From the IMG/VR virus record IMGVR_UViG_3300000162_000007, positions 1 through 55,779 of that record: a stretch of 55,779 nt of DNA. One strand, 5' to 3'. Origin of the DNA: a virus (Duplodnaviria; Caudoviricetes). The position numbers were made by a program, and so were the translations under genes. The notes under the pieces are model-generated. The model did not search any database and was not told the DNA's origin. It saw only the letters and a program-made list of their open reading frames with translations. This document shows, in pieces, positions 2,496 through 12,323 of the stretch (position 1 is the stretch's first letter; each line of letters begins with the position of its first letter).

Positions 2496-5021
2496 TTAAA
2501 AGGAGAAAAATTCCTCTAATTTCTTTGAACTGAATGATGATTTTTCCCAACCTAATGCTTTATAGAAATCATCCATTTTGTTTTCTAATTCTGCTTCAAA
2601 TATCTTATCCACATCAATATACTTTTGAATAAATTCTAATACTTCTGGAGGGTCTTGATAACCTTTGAATGCGGCAGTATCTAATCCAAATGGGTTTTGT
2701 TTAAGATATACCCATTTAATTTTATCACCATCTTTCATTGGTTCATATTTGAATGCACAATTGTAATGTTTAAGTAATCTATTATAAGTTATACCAGCTT
2801 TAATGTGTGCAGGTGTTCCCTTTTCAAAATCACCTAATTGTTTATTCTTTCCACCTCTATCATATTTACTAATCTCTTTTACTGCACCACCCTTTGCAAT
2901 TACTGAAACATCTAATCCGGCCAATGATGCTTTGAACTCTGCTAATTCCTTATCTACTTCATCGTTTGATTTACCTTGTAGGATATCTCTCAACATTCTT
3001 GCCATAAAATCTTGGAATGCTTTAGGAAATGATGAACGAACTACATCCAATCCTTTTACATCCAACTTATCCATTGGTAAACCATTGTTTGCAACTATCC
3101 ATTGTGCATATCGTTTCTTTGCAATCCATATACCCGCTTTACTGATATACTCTTTCTTAATTTCAAATCTGTGTTTGTTGATATTAAAGAACTTAACTGC
3201 CATCATATCATAAAACTTATTAAGAAACTCCTGTACCTCACCTGCAATTTCATCAATTTTAGTTGCCATTGTTTCATCATTAAATTCTGCCCAATTAGGG
3301 AAACGATGTTTAACCAAAGGTAGTGCCGAAAAGAATACTGAATCCGTATCAATGTAAATGTTGTAATCCTCATTAGTACCTAACTCTTTATTGTACTTAA
3401 TGTTTACCATTTTTGCAGTATTCTTAATTACTGTCTGACCTGTTGTAGTTACCGCTGCTGCATTATCCACATCATAGAAACGGAATGCTGGTAATCCTAA
3501 TACTCCATATAACGAGTTCAATAAGATTTTTTGTACCAACTGTCTTTTTGCATAGAATTCGTGTTGTTGTTTGTTCCCCTCTTTACCATATTTTTTTTCT
3601 AACTTACGGAACTCCACACGTTGAAAAAACCACTCATCTAATATATCTGCAATTAGACCTGGTTTATCTTGTGTATAAAGAACTCCGTTTGATGATATAG
3701 ATAGATTTTCCTCAGTTAATTCCTTTCTCAATTCCTCTGTTGTATAATTAAGAGCTGTATTTTCTATATTCCATACTCTATAATCACCCTTAACAAATGC
3801 TTCCGCATCAAAGTTTGCAATCTTACCTACTTTTGTTTCTGGTGAGATATTCAAACTCATAATGATTGAAGGATATAGTGAAGTCAAATCCAAGTCATAT
3901 AACCAATCATACTTACCTGGTATCGGGTCTTTTACATATGCACCAATAAAACCTTGTTCACCACTTTCTTTTAGTGCCTCCATTTGTTCCCTTCTATCTG
4001 CCGGTTTGTTAGGTGCTACTAAATTTCTTTTCTTTAGGTAGTTTAAACATGCTCCCTCTAAATATTTTGATGAGAACATATAATCCTCATATGGAACGTG
4101 TCCGGCGTGACAAATACCTCGACACAAGTCAATATATTGTAACTTCCTATCAAGCTCTACCACCAATTCAACGTCCACAATATTATATTCAATGAACTTC
4201 TCAATATCCTCTCTGAAAAGGTCATCCAAACTTCCTTCGTATGCAATTTTCTCTCTACCTAATTCTTTCTTTGCAATATAATTCAATGCGTAAGAAGGCA
4301 TTAGTGAATAAGTAAATTTCTTATATAGTGTAATGTAATCCAAAATAGATACCCCAGCTAAACTCCACTTCTTTCGGTATGGAGAATAAAATCCATCTCT
4401 AATTGGTGATAATCGATATGCGTTTTGTTTACCCAATACATTTGTTAAACGATTGAATAAGTAAGGAATATCGAATGCATCAATGTTCCAACCAGTAAGA
4501 ATTGTAGGGTTAATATGTTCGTAGACTGTTAGAAATGCATTAAGTAATTCTCTTTCACTTCGAAATGCTTTGATTACTCTATTATCTTTTTTAATTGTAG
4601 ATTGTAACTTACCACCCTTATCTAAAATTAGTGCATAGTAAGTATCAGTTGGTCCATCGTGCATTGCTATCGCTGTAATCTCATTCTCAGCTTTCTCAAC
4701 ATCGGGAAGACCTGTTTCCATTTCTACCTCAATGTCAAATGTCATAACCACATGTCCTTCGGATGGGATATCACTTTCTGAATATAAATCTACTAAGATA
4801 CGAGTTGTTTCCGGTACATCGGTTTCGTAATATGCGGGGTCATCTTTTTGGAACTCATAGATTTTGGTAACTTTCGTTCCATCTAATGCAGTTGATTGAC
4901 CTCTTTCTGCAGGTGCGTAGGCGTAATTAAATGTTTTGTAAGGGAATGTTTGATAACCTAATTTATCATCCCATAAATGGACTAAATCCTTTCCTTTTTG
5001 TAAATAGACGTTTTGATACAT
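2496..5021 (-). CDS. Family B DNA polymerase (T4 gp43-like)
   Basis: Exonuclease motifs FDIEV and GWNIDAFDIPY; polymerase motifs DLTSLYPS, KILLNSLYG and YIDTDS. Likely start is MYQNVY at 5021, just downstream of a promoter; the upstream ORF-track extension overlaps the next gene. Confidence 0.97.
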   Translation of the reverse strand: MYQNVYLQKGKDLVHLWDDKLGYQTFPYKTFNYAYAPAERGQSTALDGTKVTKIYEFQKDDPAYYETDVPETTRILVDLYSESDIPSEGHVVMTFDIEVEMETGLPDVEKAENEITAIAMHDGPTDTYYALILDKGGKLQSTIKKDNRVIKAFRSERELLNAFLTVYEHINPTILTGWNIDAFDIPYLFNRLTNVLGKQNAYRLSPIRDGFYSPYRKKWSLAGVSILDYITLYKKFTYSLMPSYALNYIAKKELGREKIAYEGSLDDLFREDIEKFIEYNIVDVELVVELDRKLQYIDLCRGICHAGHVPYEDYMFSSKYLEGACLNYLKKRNLVAPNKPADRREQMEALKESGEQGFIGAYVKDPIPGKYDWLYDLDLTSLYPSIIMSLNISPETKVGKIANFDAEAFVKGDYRVWNIENTALNYTTEELRKELTEENLSISSNGVLYTQDKPGLIADILDEWFFQRVEFRKLEKKYGKEGNKQQHEFYAKRQLVQKILLNSLYGVLGLPAFRFYDVDNAAAVTTTGQTVIKNTAKMVNIKYNKELGTNEDYNIYIDTDSVFFSALPLVKHRFPNWAEFNDETMATKIDEIAGEVQEFLNKFYDMMAVKFFNINKHRFEIKKEYISKAGIWIAKKRYAQWIVANNGLPMDKLDVKGLDVVRSSFPKAFQDFMARMLRDILQGKSNDEVDKELAEFKASLAGLDVSVIAKGGAVKEISKYDRGGKNKQLGDFEKGTPAHIKAGITYNRLLKHYNCAFKYEPMKDGDKIKWVYLKQNPFGLDTAAFKGYQDPPEVLEFIQKYIDVDKIFEAELENKMDDFYKALGWEKSSFSSKKLEEFFSF

Positions 5022-5027
5022 ATGTTG

Positions 5028-5059
5028 TAAAGATAACGAATAACTTTTAAAGTACAAAA
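5028..5059 (-). promoter_or_regulatory. Bacteroidota sigma70-type promoter (variant) for PolB
   Basis: TTTG-N20-TATCTTTA. Confidence 0.6.
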
Positions 5060-5590
5060 TTATTTTATCTTTAATTTGTATTTCTTGCCAGATGGAACTG
5101 AATAAATTGCAAAGATAGGAGTTACTTGAAATTGTAAATCTCTCATTCGATTTGTATATGCTTGCCATCTACCTTTTTGTAAATAGGCAATTGTCATATG
5201 TGGTCGGTAATCAGGATATTCGTTTGAGTTTGGTAGTTTCATTAGTAAATGATTTGCTTTTTCTAATCCATCACCAACCGCATCCATTTTTAATACATCA
5301 TAATTAGAATTTTCAAATACTGAAACATTACTAAGTGTTATATCACCAAAATGTATATTATCTAAAATTTGTTGAACTATTTGTGGAGTGACATTAGAAT
5401 GTAGTCCATATAATAGAGTTACATGTGGCTCGGTTTCTTTACCATATTTACCACTACCATCTTCGTAAATATCCTTATCATCTATTATTGAAGACATTTG
5501 AGTTTCATCAAAGTCAAAATATAACATTACACATCCATACTCATATGGACCACTCTCAATTTCTTTTAATAACTTTCTTAGTTTTATCAC
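5060..5590 (-). CDS. 2H phosphoesterase, Acb1/T4 gp57B-like
   Basis: Two HxT motifs (PHVTLLYG, PHMTIAY) in 176 aa. Confidence 0.8.
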   Translation of the reverse strand: MIKLRKLLKEIESGPYEYGCVMLYFDFDETQMSSIIDDKDIYEDGSGKYGKETEPHVTLLYGLHSNVTPQIVQQILDNIHFGDITLSNVSVFENSNYDVLKMDAVGDGLEKANHLLMKLPNSNEYPDYRPHMTIAYLQKGRWQAYTNRMRDLQFQVTPIFAIYSVPSGKKYKLKIK

Positions 5591-7570: not shown

Positions 7571-7589
7571 GCATATAAATATCAAACTG

Positions 7590-7674
7590 CGGAGGCTCAG
7601 GGATTCGAACCCCAGAAGCTGTTACACTTGCCGGTTTTCAAGACCGGTCCATTCAACCACTCTGGCAAACCTCC
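7590..7674 (-). tRNA. tRNA-Ser(TGA)
   Basis: GGAGGTT/AGCCTCC acceptor, CCGGT-CTTGAAA-ACCGG anticodon arm, long variable arm, G73. Confidence 0.95.
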
Positions 7675-7682
7675 GTTATATT

Positions 7683-7919
7683 CTAATAGATATTATCGTT
7701 ACTATCTATTTTAAAATCTATTGTTTCATCTTTCTTTTGCTGATGTAGATGTTTATATGATACAATTGCAAAGTCCACAGGTCCTAAAACCCAACCAATA
7801 CATAATACCATTAACAATTCCATTGCATTTGAACCAGTCTCATCTTGTTCTGCCCATTTCTTATATAAACGAGCGATACAATAAAATACACATGCGAAAT
7901 AATACAAAGTAAGTAACAT
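7683..7919 (-). CDS. Small membrane protein
   Basis: Two hydrophobic segments; own promoter at 7946-7977. Confidence 0.7.
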   Translation of the reverse strand: MLLTLYYFACVFYCIARLYKKWAEQDETGSNAMELLMVLCIGWVLGPVDFAIVSYKHLHQQKKDETIDFKIDSNDNIY

Positions 7920-7945
7920 AATTTTTAATTTTAGTGTTTATAGAT

Positions 7946-7977
7946 TAAATATACGATTTTATTTTTATTAAACCAAA
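7946..7977 (-). promoter_or_regulatory. Bacteroidota sigma70-type promoter (variant)
   Basis: TTTG-N20-TATATTTA. Confidence 0.55.
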
Positions 7978-7984
7978 TATTTTG

Positions 7985-8058
7985 TGGGAAAGAATGGATT
8001 TGAACCAGTGACCTTCGCATTATGAGTGCGCTGCTCTAACCATCTGAGCTACATTCCC
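7985..8058 (-). tRNA. tRNA with CAT anticodon (Ile2 or elongator Met)
   Basis: GGGAATG acceptor, CTCATAA loop, TTCAAAT T-loop; identity cannot be resolved by eye. Confidence 0.85.
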
Positions 8059-8061
8059 CGG

Positions 8062-8152
8062 TGCCGGTGGTGAGGTTGGTTACTCACATGAAGTCCCTTT
8101 CGGATTAATCTCCCTTACTAGTTCGGATGCGTCTAATTTTCGCCACACCGGC
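8062..8152 (-). tRNA. Aberrant Leu-like tRNA (perfect acceptor, degenerate anticodon arm and T-loop)
   Basis: GCCGGTG/CACCGGC + A; Leu-type D arm; loop ACTAGTA on a stem with only 3 bp; T-arm GTGAG-TAACCAAC-CTCAC. Confidence 0.6.
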
Positions 8153-8158
8153 ATTTTG

Positions 8159-8231
8159 TGGAGGATAACGGATTCAAACCGTTGACCCCTTGCGTGCAAA
8201 GCAAGTGCTCTATCAGCTGAGCTAATCCCCC
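8159..8231 (-). tRNA. tRNA-Ala(TGC)
   Basis: GGGGGAT/ATCCTCC with G3:U70; CTTGC-TTTGCAC-GCAAG. Confidence 0.93.
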
Positions 8232-8831
8232 CTATTTTTTATTCATCAAGTATCTTTCCTTTCTTGCTGAATTTTTGTTTTTAGATTTGTATGTGTCTAA
8301 TTGAGAGTCACAATTAGGACAAACTAATCTTAAGTTTTCTCTTTTGTTATTTGATGCATCACCATCAATGTGGTCTAAAACAAATACAATCGGTTTTCCA
8401 TTCCACTCATTTTCAATCGAACATATACTACAACAATTGTTTTGTTCTTGTAATATATGTGGTTTAAGAAATTTAATACCACTCTGTACACTACAATATT
8501 CACTTTGATTGTTCAAATAATGTTCTAATTTTTTAGATTTAATGTACTCACCATTACATTTATTTGAACAAAATTTTGCACCAGTATACGCTAGAACAAA
8601 TGTGTTATCACAATTAAGACAAATTGATGATTTAACTTTGCCTTTATTATGTGGAACCCATCCATCTGGAAATTTAGACCTTTTTTGTAAAGAAATACCA
8701 AGTTTACCACATATTTTTTTAATATAAGTGTCCGATACTCCATACATTCTGCCTATCTCTCTATAAGATAGATTTTTATTGAAAATTAAATCTTCAAGTT
8801 CAAATTTTTCGTATTTTCCAAATAATTTCAT
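8232..8831 (-). CDS. HNH endonuclease inserted in the tRNA array
   Basis: N-terminal HTH-like segment, CxxC pairs, LDHIDGDASNNKRENLRLVCPNCDSQ. Confidence 0.9.
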   Translation of the reverse strand: MKLFGKYEKFELEDLIFNKNLSYREIGRMYGVSDTYIKKICGKLGISLQKRSKFPDGWVPHNKGKVKSSICLNCDNTFVLAYTGAKFCSNKCNGEYIKSKKLEHYLNNQSEYCSVQSGIKFLKPHILQEQNNCCSICSIENEWNGKPIVFVLDHIDGDASNNKRENLRLVCPNCDSQLDTYKSKNKNSARKERYLMNKK

Positions 8832-8894
8832 ATTATTTATTTAATATAAATATCATAAAATAAAAAAATCGAACCAAAAATTAAATATTTTTTG

Positions 8895-8967
8895 TACAAC
8901 TAATAGGGTTCGAACCTATACAAAAACTTTAGAAGAGTCTTATGCTATCCAGTTACATCATAGTTGC
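8895..8967 (-). tRNA. tRNA-Arg(TCT)
   Basis: AGACT-CTTCTAA-AGTTT anticodon arm; cloverleaf. Confidence 0.9.
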
Positions 8968-8989
8968 ATATACTTTGTCTAATATATTT

Positions 8990-9064
8990 TGGCGGTCTAT
9001 AAGGGTTACGCTCCCTTTACTTCTGCGTGACAGGCAGATATGATAACTACTTCACTAATAGACC
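8990..9064 (-). tRNA. tRNA-Asp(GTC), CCA encoded, atypical T-loop
   Basis: GGTCTAT/ATAGACC + GCCA; TCTGC-CTGTCAC-GCAGA; T-loop AGCGTAA. Confidence 0.88.
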
Positions 9065-9070
9065 TTTTTG

Positions 9071-9142
9071 AGCCTCCGCCCGGAATCGAACCGAGTTATC
9101 TAGATTACAAGTCTAGCGCATCGCCTGCAATGCTTAAGAGGC
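9071..9142 (-). tRNA. tRNA-Thr(TGT)
   Basis: CTAGA-CTTGTAA-TCTAG anticodon arm; TTCGATT T-loop. Confidence 0.9.
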
Positions 9143-9147
9143 TTTTG

Positions 9148-9221
9148 TATTCCGGACGGGCCACGATCCCGCAATCTCCACTGTGAAAGAGTGACGACTT
9201 AACCAATTTGTCCACCGGAAC
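9148..9221 (-). tRNA. tRNA-Glu(TTC), atypical T-loop
   Basis: GTTCCGG/CCGGAAT; TCACT-CTTTCAC-AGTGG; T-loop ATCGTGG. Confidence 0.88.
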
Positions 9222-9222
9222 A

Positions 9223-9314
9223 TGTAAGGAAAGTAGAAGATGGGTGCGTGGACGACTACTTTTATGATTGGCGTTACTATCCGATGTTTATGTTTTTTCC
9301 CAATCAACCTTATA
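9223..9314 (-). ncRNA. Unknown three-stem structured RNA
   Basis: TAAGG/CCTTA closing stem; TGATTGG/CCAATCA and AAAGTAG/CTACTTT inner stems; begins just after a promoter. Confidence 0.55.
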
Positions 9315-9317
9315 TGT

Positions 9318-9349
9318 TAAATATACAAAAATTTTCCTTATATACCAAA
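9318..9349 (-). promoter_or_regulatory. Internal sigma70-type promoter splitting the tRNA array into two blocks
   Basis: TTTG-N20-TATATTTA, same geometry as the other promoters in the window. Confidence 0.6.
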
Positions 9350-9406
9350 AATTATCCTCAAAAAAATTTTCGGACTTTTGATAAAATCGAAAAAAAGTAC
9401 ATTTTG

Positions 9407-9481
9407 TACCGGTAATAGGATTCGAACCTATAATTGTATGGCTTCTAAGACCACTGCGTATGCCAATTCCGCCATACCGGT
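9407..9481 (-). tRNA. tRNA-Leu(TAG) lacking the long variable arm
   Basis: ACCGGTA/TACCGGT + A; GTGGT-CTTAGAA-GCCAT; 5-nt variable loop. Confidence 0.88.
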
Positions 9482-9488
9482 ATTTATG

Positions 9489-9573
9489 CGGAAAGTGTGA
9501 GATTCGAACTCACGGACCTTTAACAGTCGGCAGTTTAGTAAACTGCTGGTTTAAACCACTCACCCAACTTTCC
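9489..9573 (-). tRNA. tRNA-Ser(ACT), unusual A34 anticodon
   Basis: GGAAAGT/ACTTTCC + G73; long variable arm; GCAGT-TTACTAA-ACTGC. Confidence 0.9.
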
Positions 9574-9579
9574 TATTTG

Positions 9580-9651
9580 GGTCAAAGGACGGTATCGAAC
9601 CGACTTATCCGGCTCCACAAACCGGCGCATCACCTTAATGCTTCTAAGACC
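9580..9651 (-). tRNA. tRNA-His(GTG)
   Basis: Encoded G-1 opposite C73; CCGGT-TTGTGGA-GCCGG. Confidence 0.9.
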
Positions 9652-9710
9652 ATATGTGGAATCGAACCACTTTCCCAACTCTTACGTTAGGCGATACTCC
9701 TTTATCCTTT
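9652..9710 (-). pseudogene. tRNA remnant lacking an acceptor stem
   Basis: GATA-AAGGAG-TATC, CCTAAC-GTAAGA-GTTGGG and GTGG-TTCGATT-CCAC arms occur in tRNA order, but no 7-bp acceptor pairing is present. Confidence 0.5.
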
Positions 9711-9714
9711 ATCG

Positions 9715-9785
9715 AGGTGTGTATTGGATTCGAACCAATGTTAGAGGTTTTGCAGACCTCCACCTAGCCACTCGGACAACTCACC
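9715..9785 (-). tRNA. tRNA-Cys(GCA)
   Basis: GAGGT-CTGCAAA-ACCTC; U73. Confidence 0.93.
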
Positions 9786-9791
9786 TTATTG

Positions 9792-9864
9792 TAGTTTCAG
9801 TAGGACTCGAACCTACACTCTAACATTCGTAGTGTTATGTGATAATCCATTTCACTATGAAACT
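9792..9864 (-). tRNA. tRNA-Arg(ACG)
   Basis: AGTTTCA/TGAAACT; TAACA-CTACGAA-TGTTA. Confidence 0.93.
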
Positions 9865-9869
9865 ATTTG

Positions 9870-9938
9870 CACGCAGTGAAGGAATCGAACCCTCTCGTAA
9901 AGATTTGGAGTCTTTTTAGCTGCCATAGCCTACCACGC
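9870..9938 (-). tRNA. tRNA-Trp(CCA), compact D arm
   Basis: AAAGA-CTCCAAA-TCTTT; G73; wobble-rich acceptor, 5' end approximate. Confidence 0.8.
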
Positions 9939-9943
9939 ATTTG

Positions 9944-10017
9944 TTGGAATAAAAAGAATCGAACTTTTAACCTTTCGCGTATCAGGCGAATGCTCTAACC
10001 AATTGAGCTATATTCCA
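9944..10017 (-). tRNA. tRNA-Ile(GAT)
   Basis: TGGAATA/TATTCCA; TTCGC-CTGATAC-GCGAA. Confidence 0.93.
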
Positions 10018-10023
10018 ATGTTG

Positions 10024-10100
10024 TAGAGTGAACAGGATTCGAACCTGTGAGTTCTCTTGCTCCCAAAGCAAGCGGGGTAACCGGACTCCCCAACCACTCT
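10024..10100 (-). tRNA. tRNA-Pro(TGG)
   Basis: CTTGC-TTTGGGA-GCAAG; TTCGAAT T-loop. Confidence 0.9.
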
Positions 10101-10106
10101 ATTTTG

Positions 10107-10178
10107 TTATCGGACCTGGATTTGAACCAAAACTAATAGAATCAAAATCTATTGTGCTGCCAATTACACCATCCGACA
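10107..10178 (-). tRNA. tRNA-Gln(TTG)
   Basis: U1:A72; ATAGA-TTTTGAT-TCTAT. Confidence 0.9.
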
Positions 10179-10183
10179 ATTTG

Positions 10184-10256
10184 AGCAGATGAGAGGAATC
10201 GAACCTCCGTCTCCTACTTGGAAGAAAGGAGTAATGAGCCATTATACGACATCTGC
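10184..10256 (-). tRNA. tRNA-Gly(TCC)
   Basis: GCAGATG/CATCTGC + U73; loop CTTCCAA; one U-U mismatch in the anticodon stem. Confidence 0.88.
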
Positions 10257-10267
10257 TTTTATGTTTG

Positions 10268-10339
10268 CGCTTTCGGATGGATTTGAACCAACGACCAATT
10301 GATTAACAGTCAACTGCGCTACCACTGCGCTACGAAAGC
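10268..10339 (-). tRNA. tRNA-Asn(GTT)
   Basis: GCTTTCG/CGAAAGC + G; GTTGA-CTGTTAA-TCAAT. Confidence 0.93.
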
Positions 10340-10342
10340 TTT

Positions 10343-10427
10343 TGGTGAGAGTAGATGGACTCGAACCACCGAACTCGAAAGAGAGCTGATTTACAGTCAG
10401 CCGCAATTGCCACTATGCGATACTCCC
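10343..10427 (-). tRNA. tRNA-Tyr(GTA), CCA encoded
   Basis: GGGAGTA/TACTCTC + ACCA; GCTGA-CTGTAAA-TCAGC; long variable arm. Confidence 0.95.
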
Positions 10428-10465
10428 AAAAACAAAAAACCCCAACTAATTAAAGTCAGGGTTTT
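10428..10465 (-). terminator. Intrinsic terminator (attenuator 3:4 hairpin) immediately before the first tRNA of the array
   Basis: AAAACCCTGAC-TTTAATTA-GTTGGGGTTTT followed by TTGTTTTT. Confidence 0.85.
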
Positions 10466-10496
10466 CTAAAATTCTTAATATAAATCTAGCCTAACT

Positions 10497-10565
10497 TTAC
10501 ATATCTCTGCCATACCAAATCTGATTCGGTGTGCTACAAAGTGTATGTAATGTTAATGCTTTCAT
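10497..10565 (-). CDS. Leader peptide MKALTLHTLCSTPNQIWYGRDM
   Basis: ATG AAA GCA TTA ACA TTA CAT ACA CTT TGT AGC ACA CCG AAT CAG ATT TGG TAT GGC AGA GAT ATG TAA; too short for the ORF track; TATTTATA motif 4 nt upstream. Confidence 0.8.
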   Translation of the reverse strand: MKALTLHTLCSTPNQIWYGRDM

Positions 10566-10665
10566 TTGTTATAAATATAATCGAATTAAAAAAGTAATCA
10601 ATCTTCAAAATACGCCACGTCAAGTCATGCTCCGGTTAATACAAGCCTCGATAAATTACTTTCTG

Positions 10666-10706
10666 CTATCATTATTGGAATCGAACCAACATTAACCATT
10701 ATGATA
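10666..10706 (-). ncRNA. tRNA minihelix-like element (acceptor plus T arm only)
   Basis: TATCAT/ATGATA + G-CA; GTTGG-TTCGATT-CCAAT; about 9 nt replaces the D and anticodon arms. Confidence 0.5.
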
Positions 10707-10715
10707 AAATAAAAT

Positions 10716-11575
10716 AGGGATGAGAATACTCCATATTGTGAACCAGCTTTAGAAAGATTATTAGTTCCTTCCGTTTCCACACCCTTTTGAGATGTACCAA
10801 TTCAATGTGGGTTAATTGAGTCAACCAATCTTAAAGTTATAAACTACTCTCTTTTTACTACGCTTCCTTAAACCTATCGGCCTAACTAGTCCTTGCGGGA
10901 TTAGAAGTTTTTCGAAAGAATCACAGACTTCTTGCGGAAGTATCGTGGCTGAGAACGGCTCTCAACTATGTACACACCTTTCGTTTACAACTGGCAAACA
11001 CTTAAGCTTTAAATTTAATTTATGGTTTGCACCGAAAGCAAATTATAAGTTTAGTTTGTAGAATTATTCAAGTAGTGGTTTGCCACCAGCTCCGTTATCT
11101 TTTGAACAACAGAATACTATACTACTCGATGTGATATCCCTACCACGTTATTTTGAGTCATCTTCGAATATAGGTTTTGGTAAACTCTATATAAGGATCG
11201 TAACAGCACCACCTGTACACAGTCTTATCTTACGTCCTTTCGGATAGCTTGATGTTAAGACCACTCTTATAATGAATACCGCAATAATGTAAAGGGATTA
11301 AGTTTACACTTCTTACTGATATTCTATGGGTTATTCTTATTGGTGTCCCCACCTCAACCAAAGTATCTACAATACCCCAGTTACTCAAACTCTTCGATGA
11401 TAGTGTTACCCCCACCTACAAAGCCCAAATAATATCCCACTTGCCTACTCAAGCTAATCTCTCCTTACGGGGAGAGTAGCCGCAAATGTACCACTTAAGT
11501 ACACTCACTTTATCCTACTTTCGTAGTTTATTTAACCACCATAGGCGGCGGTTATCTATTATGTAACACAAGGTT
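10716..11575 (-). ncRNA. Giant structured ncRNA, GOLLD-like
   Basis: About 860 nt with no credible ORF and higher GC than the flanks. Many capped hairpins (CTAC-GAAA-GTAG, TCC-GAAA-GGA, ACTTC-CGCAA-GAAGT, TCC-CGCAA-GGA, CTCTCC-CCGTAA-GGAGAG) and repeated GAGTAG segments. Lies in a phage tRNA cluster. Family assignment rests on size, context and recalled motifs; ends approximate. Confidence 0.75.
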
Positions 11576-11630
11576 ACTAGATAGAATATTTTTAATAATG
11601 TTAAAGAACTACTTCGTTGTTATATATATG

Positions 11631-11662
11631 TAAATATAAATTAAAAAATCAAATTTACCAAA
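11631..11662 (-). promoter_or_regulatory. sigma70-type promoter upstream of the giant RNA
   Basis: TTTG-N20-TATATTTA. Confidence 0.55.
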
Positions 11663-11735
11663 TATTTTTACAACTTTTTTTCTAAGATTAGATACCGAGT
11701 ATCTTTCATTGCCTATAAGTTCCAATCTTATATAT

Positions 11736-11767
11736 CAAAGATACGATAAGTTTTTCAAACTACCAAA
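11736..11767 (-). promoter_or_regulatory. Consensus Bacteroidota sigma70 promoter
   Basis: TTTG-N20-TATCTTTG. Confidence 0.8.
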
Positions 11768-11867
11768 TATCTTTGAGTATTTTTTTATTAGGGTATCCGG
11801 CTTTCTTCCCAGTCGAACTGGTCACTCAATCGGTTTTATTAGTTGATGGCTTCAACCCTAACATTTG

Positions 11868-11939
11868 TTGCGGAAGGAGGGATCGAACCTCCGACCTACG
11901 GGTTATGAGCCCGCCGAGCTACCTCTGCTCTATTCCGCG
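11868..11939 (-). tRNA. Initiator tRNA-fMet(CAT)
   Basis: C1:A72 mismatch; GGG/CCC in the anticodon stem; CTCATAA loop. Confidence 0.93.
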
Positions 11940-11945
11940 ATATTG

Positions 11946-12323
11946 TGGAGATGACGAGACTCGAACTCGTGTCTTACAAAGAACTAATAATACCAGCATA
12001 TCACACGTTTAGGTTAAAGTTTAATCTTATAAACTTTCCAAAATAATTGAGGTCGTATGGTTAGTACAACTTTCCACCAATATATTGTTTAGGTACAACA
12101 TATAAAACCTTTGTAGGCACTTCTGTTACTAGGCGTATGTGCACCGGCCCTATTGTTGCTAACTAAGCTATCGCCAAATCAGCACCTACGAAGTCCATAA
12201 GGTCTGCGAAGGTCATTGTTGACATTTCGTCGTTTATTGTTTTGTGCAGATTTAAGGAGAACTAGCACTTCTCTCCACGTGTGGTACTACCATTTACATT
12301 GTAATCAATTCCATAGCATCCCC
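11946..12323 (-). ncRNA. ssrA: tmRNA
   Basis: 5' GGGGATG pairs with 3' CATCTCC-A with G3:U70; T arm ACGAG-TTCGAGT-CTCGT; ATAAAC-GAC resume context; tag ORF 12163-12231 DEMSTMTFADLMDFVGADLAIA*. Confidence 0.93.

Follow-up and report, generated by a model that had tools for sequence, protein, structure and literature searches.

Attenuation of transcription through translation of a leader peptide is textbook biology for amino-acid operons (trp, his, phe, leu, thr, and ilv), and in nascent-peptide arrest leaders of the TnaC, SecM, and Erm type a peptide motif stalls the ribosome from the exit tunnel. Here we describe an element of comparable design in front of phage tRNA genes. It lies in a 55,779-nucleotide stretch of DNA from an uncultured virus (Caudoviricetes; IMG/VR record IMGVR_UViG_3300000162_000007), hereafter called the window, a 55.8-kb fragment with an estimated completeness of ~30% and a G+C content of 32%. 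On the minus strand of the window, a leader (10577-10428) with a short open reading frame (ORF) and a terminator immediately precedes an array of 19 tRNA genes. Judged from the window and its relatives, this leader is probably a ribosome-mediated transcription attenuator that gates the tRNA array and senses many amino acids, and an attenuator of one kind or another is very likely. As in the amino-acid operons, a short leader ORF is combined with mutually exclusive helices (2:3 and 3:4, and a predicted 1:2), recognized here by sequence, and we propose that here too the stop codon lets a terminating ribosome interfere with region 2, while a ribosome held early leads to read-through. Unlike those operons, the leader has no runs of regulatory codons and contains nearly all 20 amino acids about once each, its output is tRNAs and not enzymes, the element is encoded by a phage, and region 2 falls within the ORF in the majority of members, 22-25 nucleotides (nt) ahead of the stop codon. 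Arrest leaders rely on a specific stalling motif, and the leader family has a conserved N-terminal motif.

Other described systems share parts of this design. In bmrB-bmrCD of Bacillus subtilis, a stall in leader translation is reported to switch a terminator to an antiterminator (PMC4191407). That leader ORF also lacks codon runs and responds to any stall, which is what we propose here. Resistance-gene attenuators of this type answer translation-inhibiting antibiotics and control transporters or ribosome-protection proteins, with neither amino-acid completeness nor a tRNA output. T-box riboswitches likewise couple the state of the tRNA pool to a terminator/antiterminator choice before translation-related genes. 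A T-box binds one uncharged tRNA directly and without translation, whereas the leader described here has a conserved ORF, and no Rfam match, T-box included, was found in 10428-10716 at an E value of up to 1 or at the gathering score. Phage tRNAs that replace host tRNAs depleted in infection or defence are a feature shared with T5-like phages, whose tRNA-Tyr, expressed from strong dedicated promoters, evades the retron Eco7; the accessible portion of that study describes the strong promoters, and no leader ORF or attenuator (PMC11555353). The GOLLD RNA occurs near phage tRNA islands, downstream of tRNA-Met, in an account whose available text mentions no terminator or leader (bioRxiv 10.1101/2024.12.08.627333). 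The GOLLD loci described there share the neighbourhood of the window, where the leader stands downstream of GOLLD as a unit in its own right. Full-text literature searches, with subscription journals and supplementary files outside their coverage, returned no attenuator before phage tRNA genes and no leader containing all amino acids.

Leader reading frame and alternative helices

An earlier note, made from the sequence of the window alone, had drawn attention to a 22-codon ORF with 17 different amino acids. We found this ORF as described; it encodes MKALTLHTLCSTPNQIWYGRDM, and its amino-acid diversity exceeds the expected 12-13 (P about 0.002), in a region where ORFs of at least 20 amino acids are common (92 in the 6 kb around the site). 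The minimum free energy structure of 10600-10428 consists of a protector hairpin and a terminator and has an energy of -41.8 kcal/mol, compared with -24.8 +/- 3.5 kcal/mol for 200 shuffles (z -4.9, 0/200 as good). The protector hairpin lies where the note had placed it; codons 2-8 pair with the bases surrounding the stop codon, and the inner extensions that had been listed are included. The antiterminator that had been claimed, TAAAGTTAGG (10499-10490) with CCTGACTTTA (10460-10451), is present as well. Folding with a ribosome imposed on the leader had been suggested as a check. In folds of a nascent transcript lacking region 4, the antiterminator forms both without a ribosome and with one masking codon 5 or 12. 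When the stop codon occupies the A site, it is the terminator that forms. The terminator comprises 15 pairs around a loop at 10453-10448 and a T run to 10428. It is indeed U-tailed and placed before tRNA-Tyr, but it ends at 10428, one base short of the tRNA, and not exactly at the first base of the tRNA. Terminator-like sites are not enriched in the region (3 found versus 3.5 expected), and the window by itself is weak evidence; conservation and covariation in relatives lift it above chance.

To obtain an unbiased set of relatives, we fetched 25 loci by means of the neighbouring ATPase (97-50% protein identity), 17 of which extend to the site between the GOLLD RNA and the array. Sixteen of these 17 loci have a small ORF and, after it, a strong terminator directly adjoining the first tRNA. 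The peptides form five diverged clades (22, 31, 42-43, and 47 amino acids) with the common core M-K-x-[LF]-[NT]-L-H-T-x4-P-x3-6-W. A wider set came from scans of viral, metagenome, and genome-contig sequences with degenerate patterns of this core motif. True leaders accounted for all 16 viral matches, for 72 of the 117 metagenome matches listed, where a match was kept if it had the ORF and a tRNA within 200 nt, and for 1 of the 32 genome-contig matches, the other 31 being rejected as unrelated longer proteins or chance ORFs. With the window included, the totals are at least 106 loci, at least 75 unique leader-to-tRNA sequences, and at least 60 unique peptides, on which the counts out of 75 and 60 given below rest; the tests on this wider set use features outside the demands of the pattern. 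ORF, terminator, and adjoining tRNA array recur in all 106 loci kept, a tRNA within 200 nt being the filter criterion, and the first tRNA is tRNA-Asn in 101 of them. The gap between the terminator and the first tRNA measures 0-14 nt in 71 of the 75 unique sequences, thus leaving no room for a promoter between the two. The alignment of related phages, another check that the note had named, therefore shows the conserved ORF, the high amino-acid diversity, and the covarying helices to recur. From this alignment, the window copy is a truncated member of a family of leaders of 22-53 codons: its stop codon replaces the Phe/Tyr codon that follows the conserved Met of the relatives, and region 2 therefore lies just after the window ORF and not inside it.

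The terminator is present in 75/75 unique relatives, with 96.9% of its helix cells paired, and the best upstream partner of its 5' arm is found at one homologous place in 70 of the 75 sequences. In the MAFFT alignment, the antiterminator columns (153-162 with 232-241) are paired in 87.6% of cells, compared with 21-59% for slid partners. Compensatory changes occur in 5 of the 10 antiterminator pairs, and 0/500 shuffles reach the observed pairing, cell count, and covariation score (pair counts: 157/237, UA 41, UG 18, CG 11; 160/234, GC 46, AU 26; 162/232, GC 41, UA 15). Where column 234 of the terminator 5' arm has a U, the antiterminator strand has an A (26 sequences) and the terminator 3' arm often has a G (U-G, 16 sequences), and thus the antiterminator is paired there at least as well as the terminator. 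Native antiterminator duplexes are also more stable than duplexes with partners exchanged among sequences (-13.38 versus -11.06 kcal/mol; 0/5000 permutations as low), and the same holds for register-aware 1:2 duplexes (-9.09 versus -6.93 kcal/mol for permuted ones; 0/3000 permutations as low). The 1:2 pair 20/157 occurs as AU (27 sequences), GC (11), or GU (2). The covariation extends across all four regions, which read UU[A/G]AC, GU[U/C]AG, CU[A/G]AC, and GUU[A/G]G from region 1 to region 4: a C in region 2 occurs in 11 sequences, and 11/11 have a G in region 1 as well as in region 3. Mean duplex energies are -9.1 (1:2), -13.7 (2:3), and -18.1 kcal/mol (3:4). Each structural prediction of the 1:2, 2:3, and 3:4 attenuator logic that had been proposed for the window fits these comparative data.

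The position of the stop codon is tied to region 2. In 51/75 sequences its first base is at +22 (36 sequences) or +25 (15 sequences), counted from where the region-2 core begins, and in 7 others, the window clade among them, the stop precedes the core by 3-4 nt. A ribosome covers ~12-15 nt on either side of its P site, and with a footprint of this size a ribosome at the stop codon would overlap the G-rich part of region 2 in both arrangements.

Several features indicate that the frame is under coding constraint. The distance from the ATG to the region-2 core takes 14 values between 69 and 137 nt and equals 2 modulo 3 in 66 of the 75 unique sequences. Over the 75 sequences, stop codons between the ATG and region 2 total 7 for frame 0, each an early stop right before region 2, as against 215 for frame +1 and 339 for frame +2. 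Conserved residues show synonymous changes (TTA/CTA/CTG for Leu, ACA/ACG for Thr, and CCG/CCT/CCA for Pro), and these synonymous differences among clades are a coding signature at the sequence level. No Shine-Dalgarno sequence was found before the leader ORF. Since 31 of 38 long ORFs of the window phage also have none and are preceded by A-rich regions, its absence does not speak against translation. A TATA[CT]TTAT-like box stands 5-20 nt before the ATG in all clades and in the window coincides with the promoter-like site TTGATT-16-TATATT, whose second hexamer ends 8 nt before the ATG and would therefore leave almost no 5' untranslated region. Promoter-like sites are not enriched in the region (22 found versus 24.1 expected), and a promoter right before a nearly leaderless ORF is plausible but unproven.

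The window and its relatives (L003, L007, L009-L012, L017, and L018) are 96-99% identical in leader and spacer (10428-10716), and less alike in the flanks: 81-91% in the GOLLD 3' domain, 74-83% in the ATPase, and ~78-84% in the tRNA array. Across phages with only 76-84% identity in GOLLD, ATPase, and tRNA array, leader and spacer reach 97-98%; the short form therefore seems to be under strong constraint, and the high identity would reflect either very strong constraint or a recent exchange of the block.

Amino-acid completeness and the tRNA array

Of the 60 unique peptides, 43 have a full set of 20 amino acids, and these 43 are among the 51 peptides of at least 38 amino acids (38-53 codons). 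Among clusters at 70% identity, 10 of 17 include a member with all 20, and the remaining seven comprise four short forms and three with 19 amino acids. By comparison, control small ORFs of 38-53 codons from the same loci contain all 20 in 16 of 1474 cases (1.1%), some of which are unfiltered copies of the leader. The 29-43 codons ahead of region 2 by themselves represent 19-20 amino acids, and several stretches of 30 codons hold all 20. The leaders have no runs of one codon; they contain 15-20 different amino acids, the rare ones mostly once, with a single occurrence of His in 60/60 peptides, of Cys in 52/60, and of Trp in 48/60. The position of Cys depends on the clade (10, 11, 17, 23, 25, 31, or 39), and those of Tyr, Asp, Glu, and Arg also differ among clades, which argues for selection on the presence of these residues rather than for a structural role. 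The idea of a multi-amino-acid leader, put forward in the earlier note, has become stronger than the window could show, most family members having all 20 amino acids.

We compared the repertoires of leader and array at 32 loci with a visible array end. Leaders with all 20 amino acids stand before arrays that cover all 20. Arrays of the window clade have no tRNA for Phe, Lys, and Val, nor for Tyr (window excepted), and leaders of the same clade lack Glu, Phe, and Val as well as Tyr (window excepted). In the window alone, a tRNA-Tyr is inserted between the terminator and tRNA-Asn, and in the window alone the leader has a Tyr codon (TAT at codon 18, 10514-10512), where close relatives have GGT or GGG (Gly). 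This matching between leader and array may be meaningful, yet it is suggestive only, and the gain of Tyr is a single event. Under strict wobble, 619 of 757 leader codons (0.82) are readable by the tRNAs of the leader's own array, compared with 0.67 for codons of long ORFs, and the decodable fraction is higher for the leader in 21/21 loci, which are not independent of one another.

From the ORF, the three alternative helices with their covariation, the stop-codon geometry, and the amino-acid completeness, all read from sequence, we infer where transcription starts, that the ORF is translated, how efficiently transcription terminates, and which signal induces the array. The attenuator would be placed between the promoter-like box and the first gene of the array, with transcription beginning just before the small ORF. 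On a leader without a ribosome, region 1 would pair with region 2, the 3:4 terminator would form, and transcription would stop one base before the first tRNA. With smooth translation to the stop codon, the ribosome would cover or abut region 2 as regions 3 and 4 emerge, and the terminator would form again. A ribosome held upstream of region 2, by contrast, would leave region 1 occupied or unpaired and region 2 free, so that the 2:3 antiterminator could form, RNA polymerase would read through, the array would be transcribed, and RNase P would cut out the tRNAs. With almost every amino acid represented about once in the sensing part, a severe shortage of practically any charged tRNA would switch the array on. 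Such a shortage could arise from the codon demand of the AT-rich phage, from amino-acid starvation, or from cleavage of tRNAs by host defences, and the outcome would be a demand-driven feedback on tRNA supply; any link to anticodon nucleases is pure inference. The observation made in the earlier note is confirmed, and the interpretation given there is supported by the comparative evidence. A bolder version is a 'pangram' sensor, in which a peptide of 30-50 codons is selected for all 20 amino acids, the collapse of any one pool induces the array, and the repertoires of leader and array co-evolve. We put this version forward tentatively, and lean slightly against it.

Objections and alternative explanations

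A number of observations weigh against an attenuator that senses many amino acids. The window copy has the weakest antiterminator of the family, with a duplex of -8.4 kcal/mol that 28/200 shuffles equal (z -1.1). RNAalifold, run on the gap-rich alignment of 75 sequences, predicts the terminator alone. In fixed columns, the 1:2 pairing (70.1% and 80.3%) is barely above that of one-column slides (66-73%), although these counts are non-decisive because the UUAAC core shifts by one base, codon 5 being AAC (Asn) or ACA (Thr). Six sequences of the L019 clade have their stop codon +37 nt past region 2, beyond the cover of a terminating ribosome, and this clade would need 1:2 to re-pair behind the ribosome. 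L013, the 17th locus of the unbiased set, lacks the ORF although a terminator and an array are present. The pattern used for the wider set demands the N-terminal motif, whose conservation there is by construction, and the N-terminal peptide, being strongly conserved, could itself be functional. Shuffle and permutation controls take no account of relatedness and show consistency rather than probabilities. Repertoires of leader and array match poorly in L002, L162, and L041, and a leader with a single codon for each amino acid should respond only weakly to mild starvation. For RNA, four freshwater metatranscriptome runs were examined as contigs (of the 24 runs listed, none contained half of the sampled words); such contigs show no ends, strand, or level, may derive from DNA, and do not bear on termination or read-through. 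The GOLLD region (about 10733-11550) has RNA contigs in 4/4 runs, and the leader is covered by a single contig of depth 3 (run X5, 10424-10545), which continues for 70 letters unlike the window.

The alternative that survives best retains the same attenuator and changes its signal to the general status of translation, with ribosome availability, translation-blocking defences or toxins, and lost coupling of transcription and translation as candidate signals; amino-acid completeness would then be a by-product of overlapping constraints on RNA structure and coding. The conserved peptide does largely overlap the conserved helices (region 1 at codons 3-6, and the CC of Pro and GG of Trp in an inner hairpin), about one occurrence per amino acid favours an all-or-none stall sensor, and resistance genes such as bmrCD are reported to have ribosome-mediated attenuators that react to stalls of any kind. 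Such a by-product is difficult to reconcile with the presence of all 20 amino acids in 43/51 long forms as against at most 1.1% of controls, and the shifting of Cys, Tyr, Asp, Glu, and Arg among clades is hard to explain without selection for presence. The codons of the leader, moreover, lean towards those that the tRNAs of the array read. We therefore consider a purely general signal unlikely.

Another possibility is that the ORF is a gene for a small functional peptide (22-53 amino acids) with its own promoter and terminator, that the alternative pairings are incidental, and that the array is expressed through constitutive leakage of the terminator or with the help of a phage antitermination factor. 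The terminator and array without an ORF in L013 would fit such a gene, as would the conservation of the ~25 N-terminal residues at the amino-acid level and the much higher identity of leader and spacer than of their flanks. It would predict neither the covariation found between antiterminator and terminator arm and between regions 1 and 2, nor a stop codon tied to region 2 and not to the length of the peptide, and the C-terminal tails are unrelated among clades at lengths of 22-53. No Pfam or PHROG family was found for the five leaders searched; matches to Pfam DUF732 (E 0.047, below the cut-off) and to PHROGs (E 0.012 and 0.18) were rejected as noise. A peptide gene is improbable. An element acting as RNA only, with an untranslated ORF, be it a structure for processing or pausing or a leader of the riboswitch-like or tRNA-sensing kind, is very improbable, for even if the leader folds far better than shuffles (z -4.9) and has no Shine-Dalgarno sequence, such sequences are generally missing from the genes of this phage, the frame stays open through 14 lengths while the other frames have 215 and 339 stops, conserved residues show synonymous changes, and 10428-10716 has no match in Rfam, to the T-box or otherwise, at an E value of up to 1. 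None of these three explanations accounts jointly for the covariation, the placement of the stop codon, and the completeness in amino acids.

Genomic neighbourhood and implications

The leader stands at the end of a series of RNA genes (Table 1). On the minus strand, the order is the AAA ATPase gene, a small ORF, transfer-messenger RNA (tmRNA), tRNA-Met, GOLLD RNA, a spacer of 116 nt, the leader, and the 19 tRNAs, and relatives keep the order tmRNA, tRNA-Met, GOLLD, leader, and array. The GOLLD RNA, tRNA-Met, and tmRNA directly upstream had been overlooked in the earlier note. Together with the gated array they look like a 'translation-support island'. The variable 5' part of GOLLD extends upstream of its conserved domain, towards 11550.

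Table 1. Features of the leader locus in the window, listed in the direction of the minus strand
Feature	Position	Strand	Remarks
AAA ATPase gene	13966-12839	minus	
Phage tmRNA	12323-11945	minus	upstream of GOLLD
tRNA-Met	11939-11867	minus	between tmRNA and GOLLD
GOLLD RNA, conserved 3' domain	10717-11129	minus	Rfam RF02032, 284.4 bits versus gathering score 150, E 3e-81
Spacer, GOLLD 3' end to promoter-like site of the leader	10602-10716	minus	T-arm-like hairpin and conserved box
Promoter-like site TTGATT-16-TATATT	10574-10601	minus	score 9/12
Leader ORF, 22 codons and TAA	10497-10565	minus	ATG 10565-10563, TAA 10499-10497
Region 1 (5' strand of protector = anti-antiterminator)	10544-10560	minus	codons 2-8; UUAAC core 10556-10552
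Region 2 (3' strand of protector, 5' strand of antiterminator)	10490-10503	minus	overlaps stop codon in window clade
Region 3 (terminator 5' arm 10468-10454)	10451-10468	minus	10460-10451 alternatively pairs with region 2
Region 4 (terminator 3' arm 10447-10433)	10428-10447	minus	U tract through 10428
Gated array, 19 tRNA genes	7589-10427	minus	first is tRNA-Tyr, 10427-10343 (ARAGORN)

The ORF-terminator unit belongs to the array and not to GOLLD, since it remains with the main array in L023 and L020, where tRNAs or a protein gene are inserted after GOLLD. Nor is the leader a general part of GOLLD, because the GOLLD locus in LR745206.1 (L195, a 635-kb uncultured phage) has no leader ORF (4700-5300); there, two odd tRNA-like sequences bearing long inserts come after GOLLD, with a terminator behind them. 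In the window, a T-arm-like hairpin, TTGGTTCGATTCCAA (10675-10689, minus), directly follows the GOLLD 3' end, and a conserved box (10602-10660, minus) precedes the putative leader promoter and is common to L002, L014, L026, L031, L032, and L044. L014 and L026 have ~350 nt inserted between the spacer hairpin and this box; L013 has the same ~350-nt insert, but without a GOLLD 3' domain or a leader. In a single-sequence fold, the spacer (10730-10575) folds no better than shuffles (z +1.6).

The tRNAs of the array are, in order, Tyr, Asn, Gly, Gln, Pro, Ile, Trp, Arg, Cys, His, Ser, Leu, Glu, Thr, Asp, Arg, Ala, Met, and Ser. Among them is a tRNA-Ser with the unusual anticodon ACT (9488-9573, minus; ARAGORN), for which the same call is made in the arrays of relatives. 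The gap between tRNA-Arg and tRNA-Ala, which is shorter or different in relatives, holds an ORF of 199 amino acids (8831-8232, minus); judged by eye from its Cys-rich sequence and its His/Asn motifs, the product looks like an HNH homing endonuclease. The tag of the window tmRNA (12163-12225, minus) ends in ...GADLAIA, compared with ...DYAVAA in most relatives.

A tblastn search with the leader of 53 amino acids against 50,697 phage records returned no match, which indicates that no cultured phage carries the leader, and blastn of 10300-11900 against phage records gave matches to the tRNA and GOLLD parts alone. The neighbouring ATPase is ~40% identical to ATPases of jumbo phages and gives no host. 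One true leader lies on a 1.6-kb contig binned with a cyanobacterial metagenome-assembled genome, and we did not accept this as evidence of a cyanobacterial host.

The module is widespread in uncultured large freshwater phages, with at least 106 loci. If confirmed, it would be the first leader-peptide attenuator known for tRNA genes and the first natural leader that samples all amino acids instead of one, and as a compact and portable sensor of translation or tRNA status it may be of use in synthetic biology. Some phage tRNA arrays would then be induced on demand and not expressed constitutively, which bears on why phages carry tRNAs, be it for codon compensation, for the replacement of degraded host tRNAs, or for escape from tRNA-cleaving defences.

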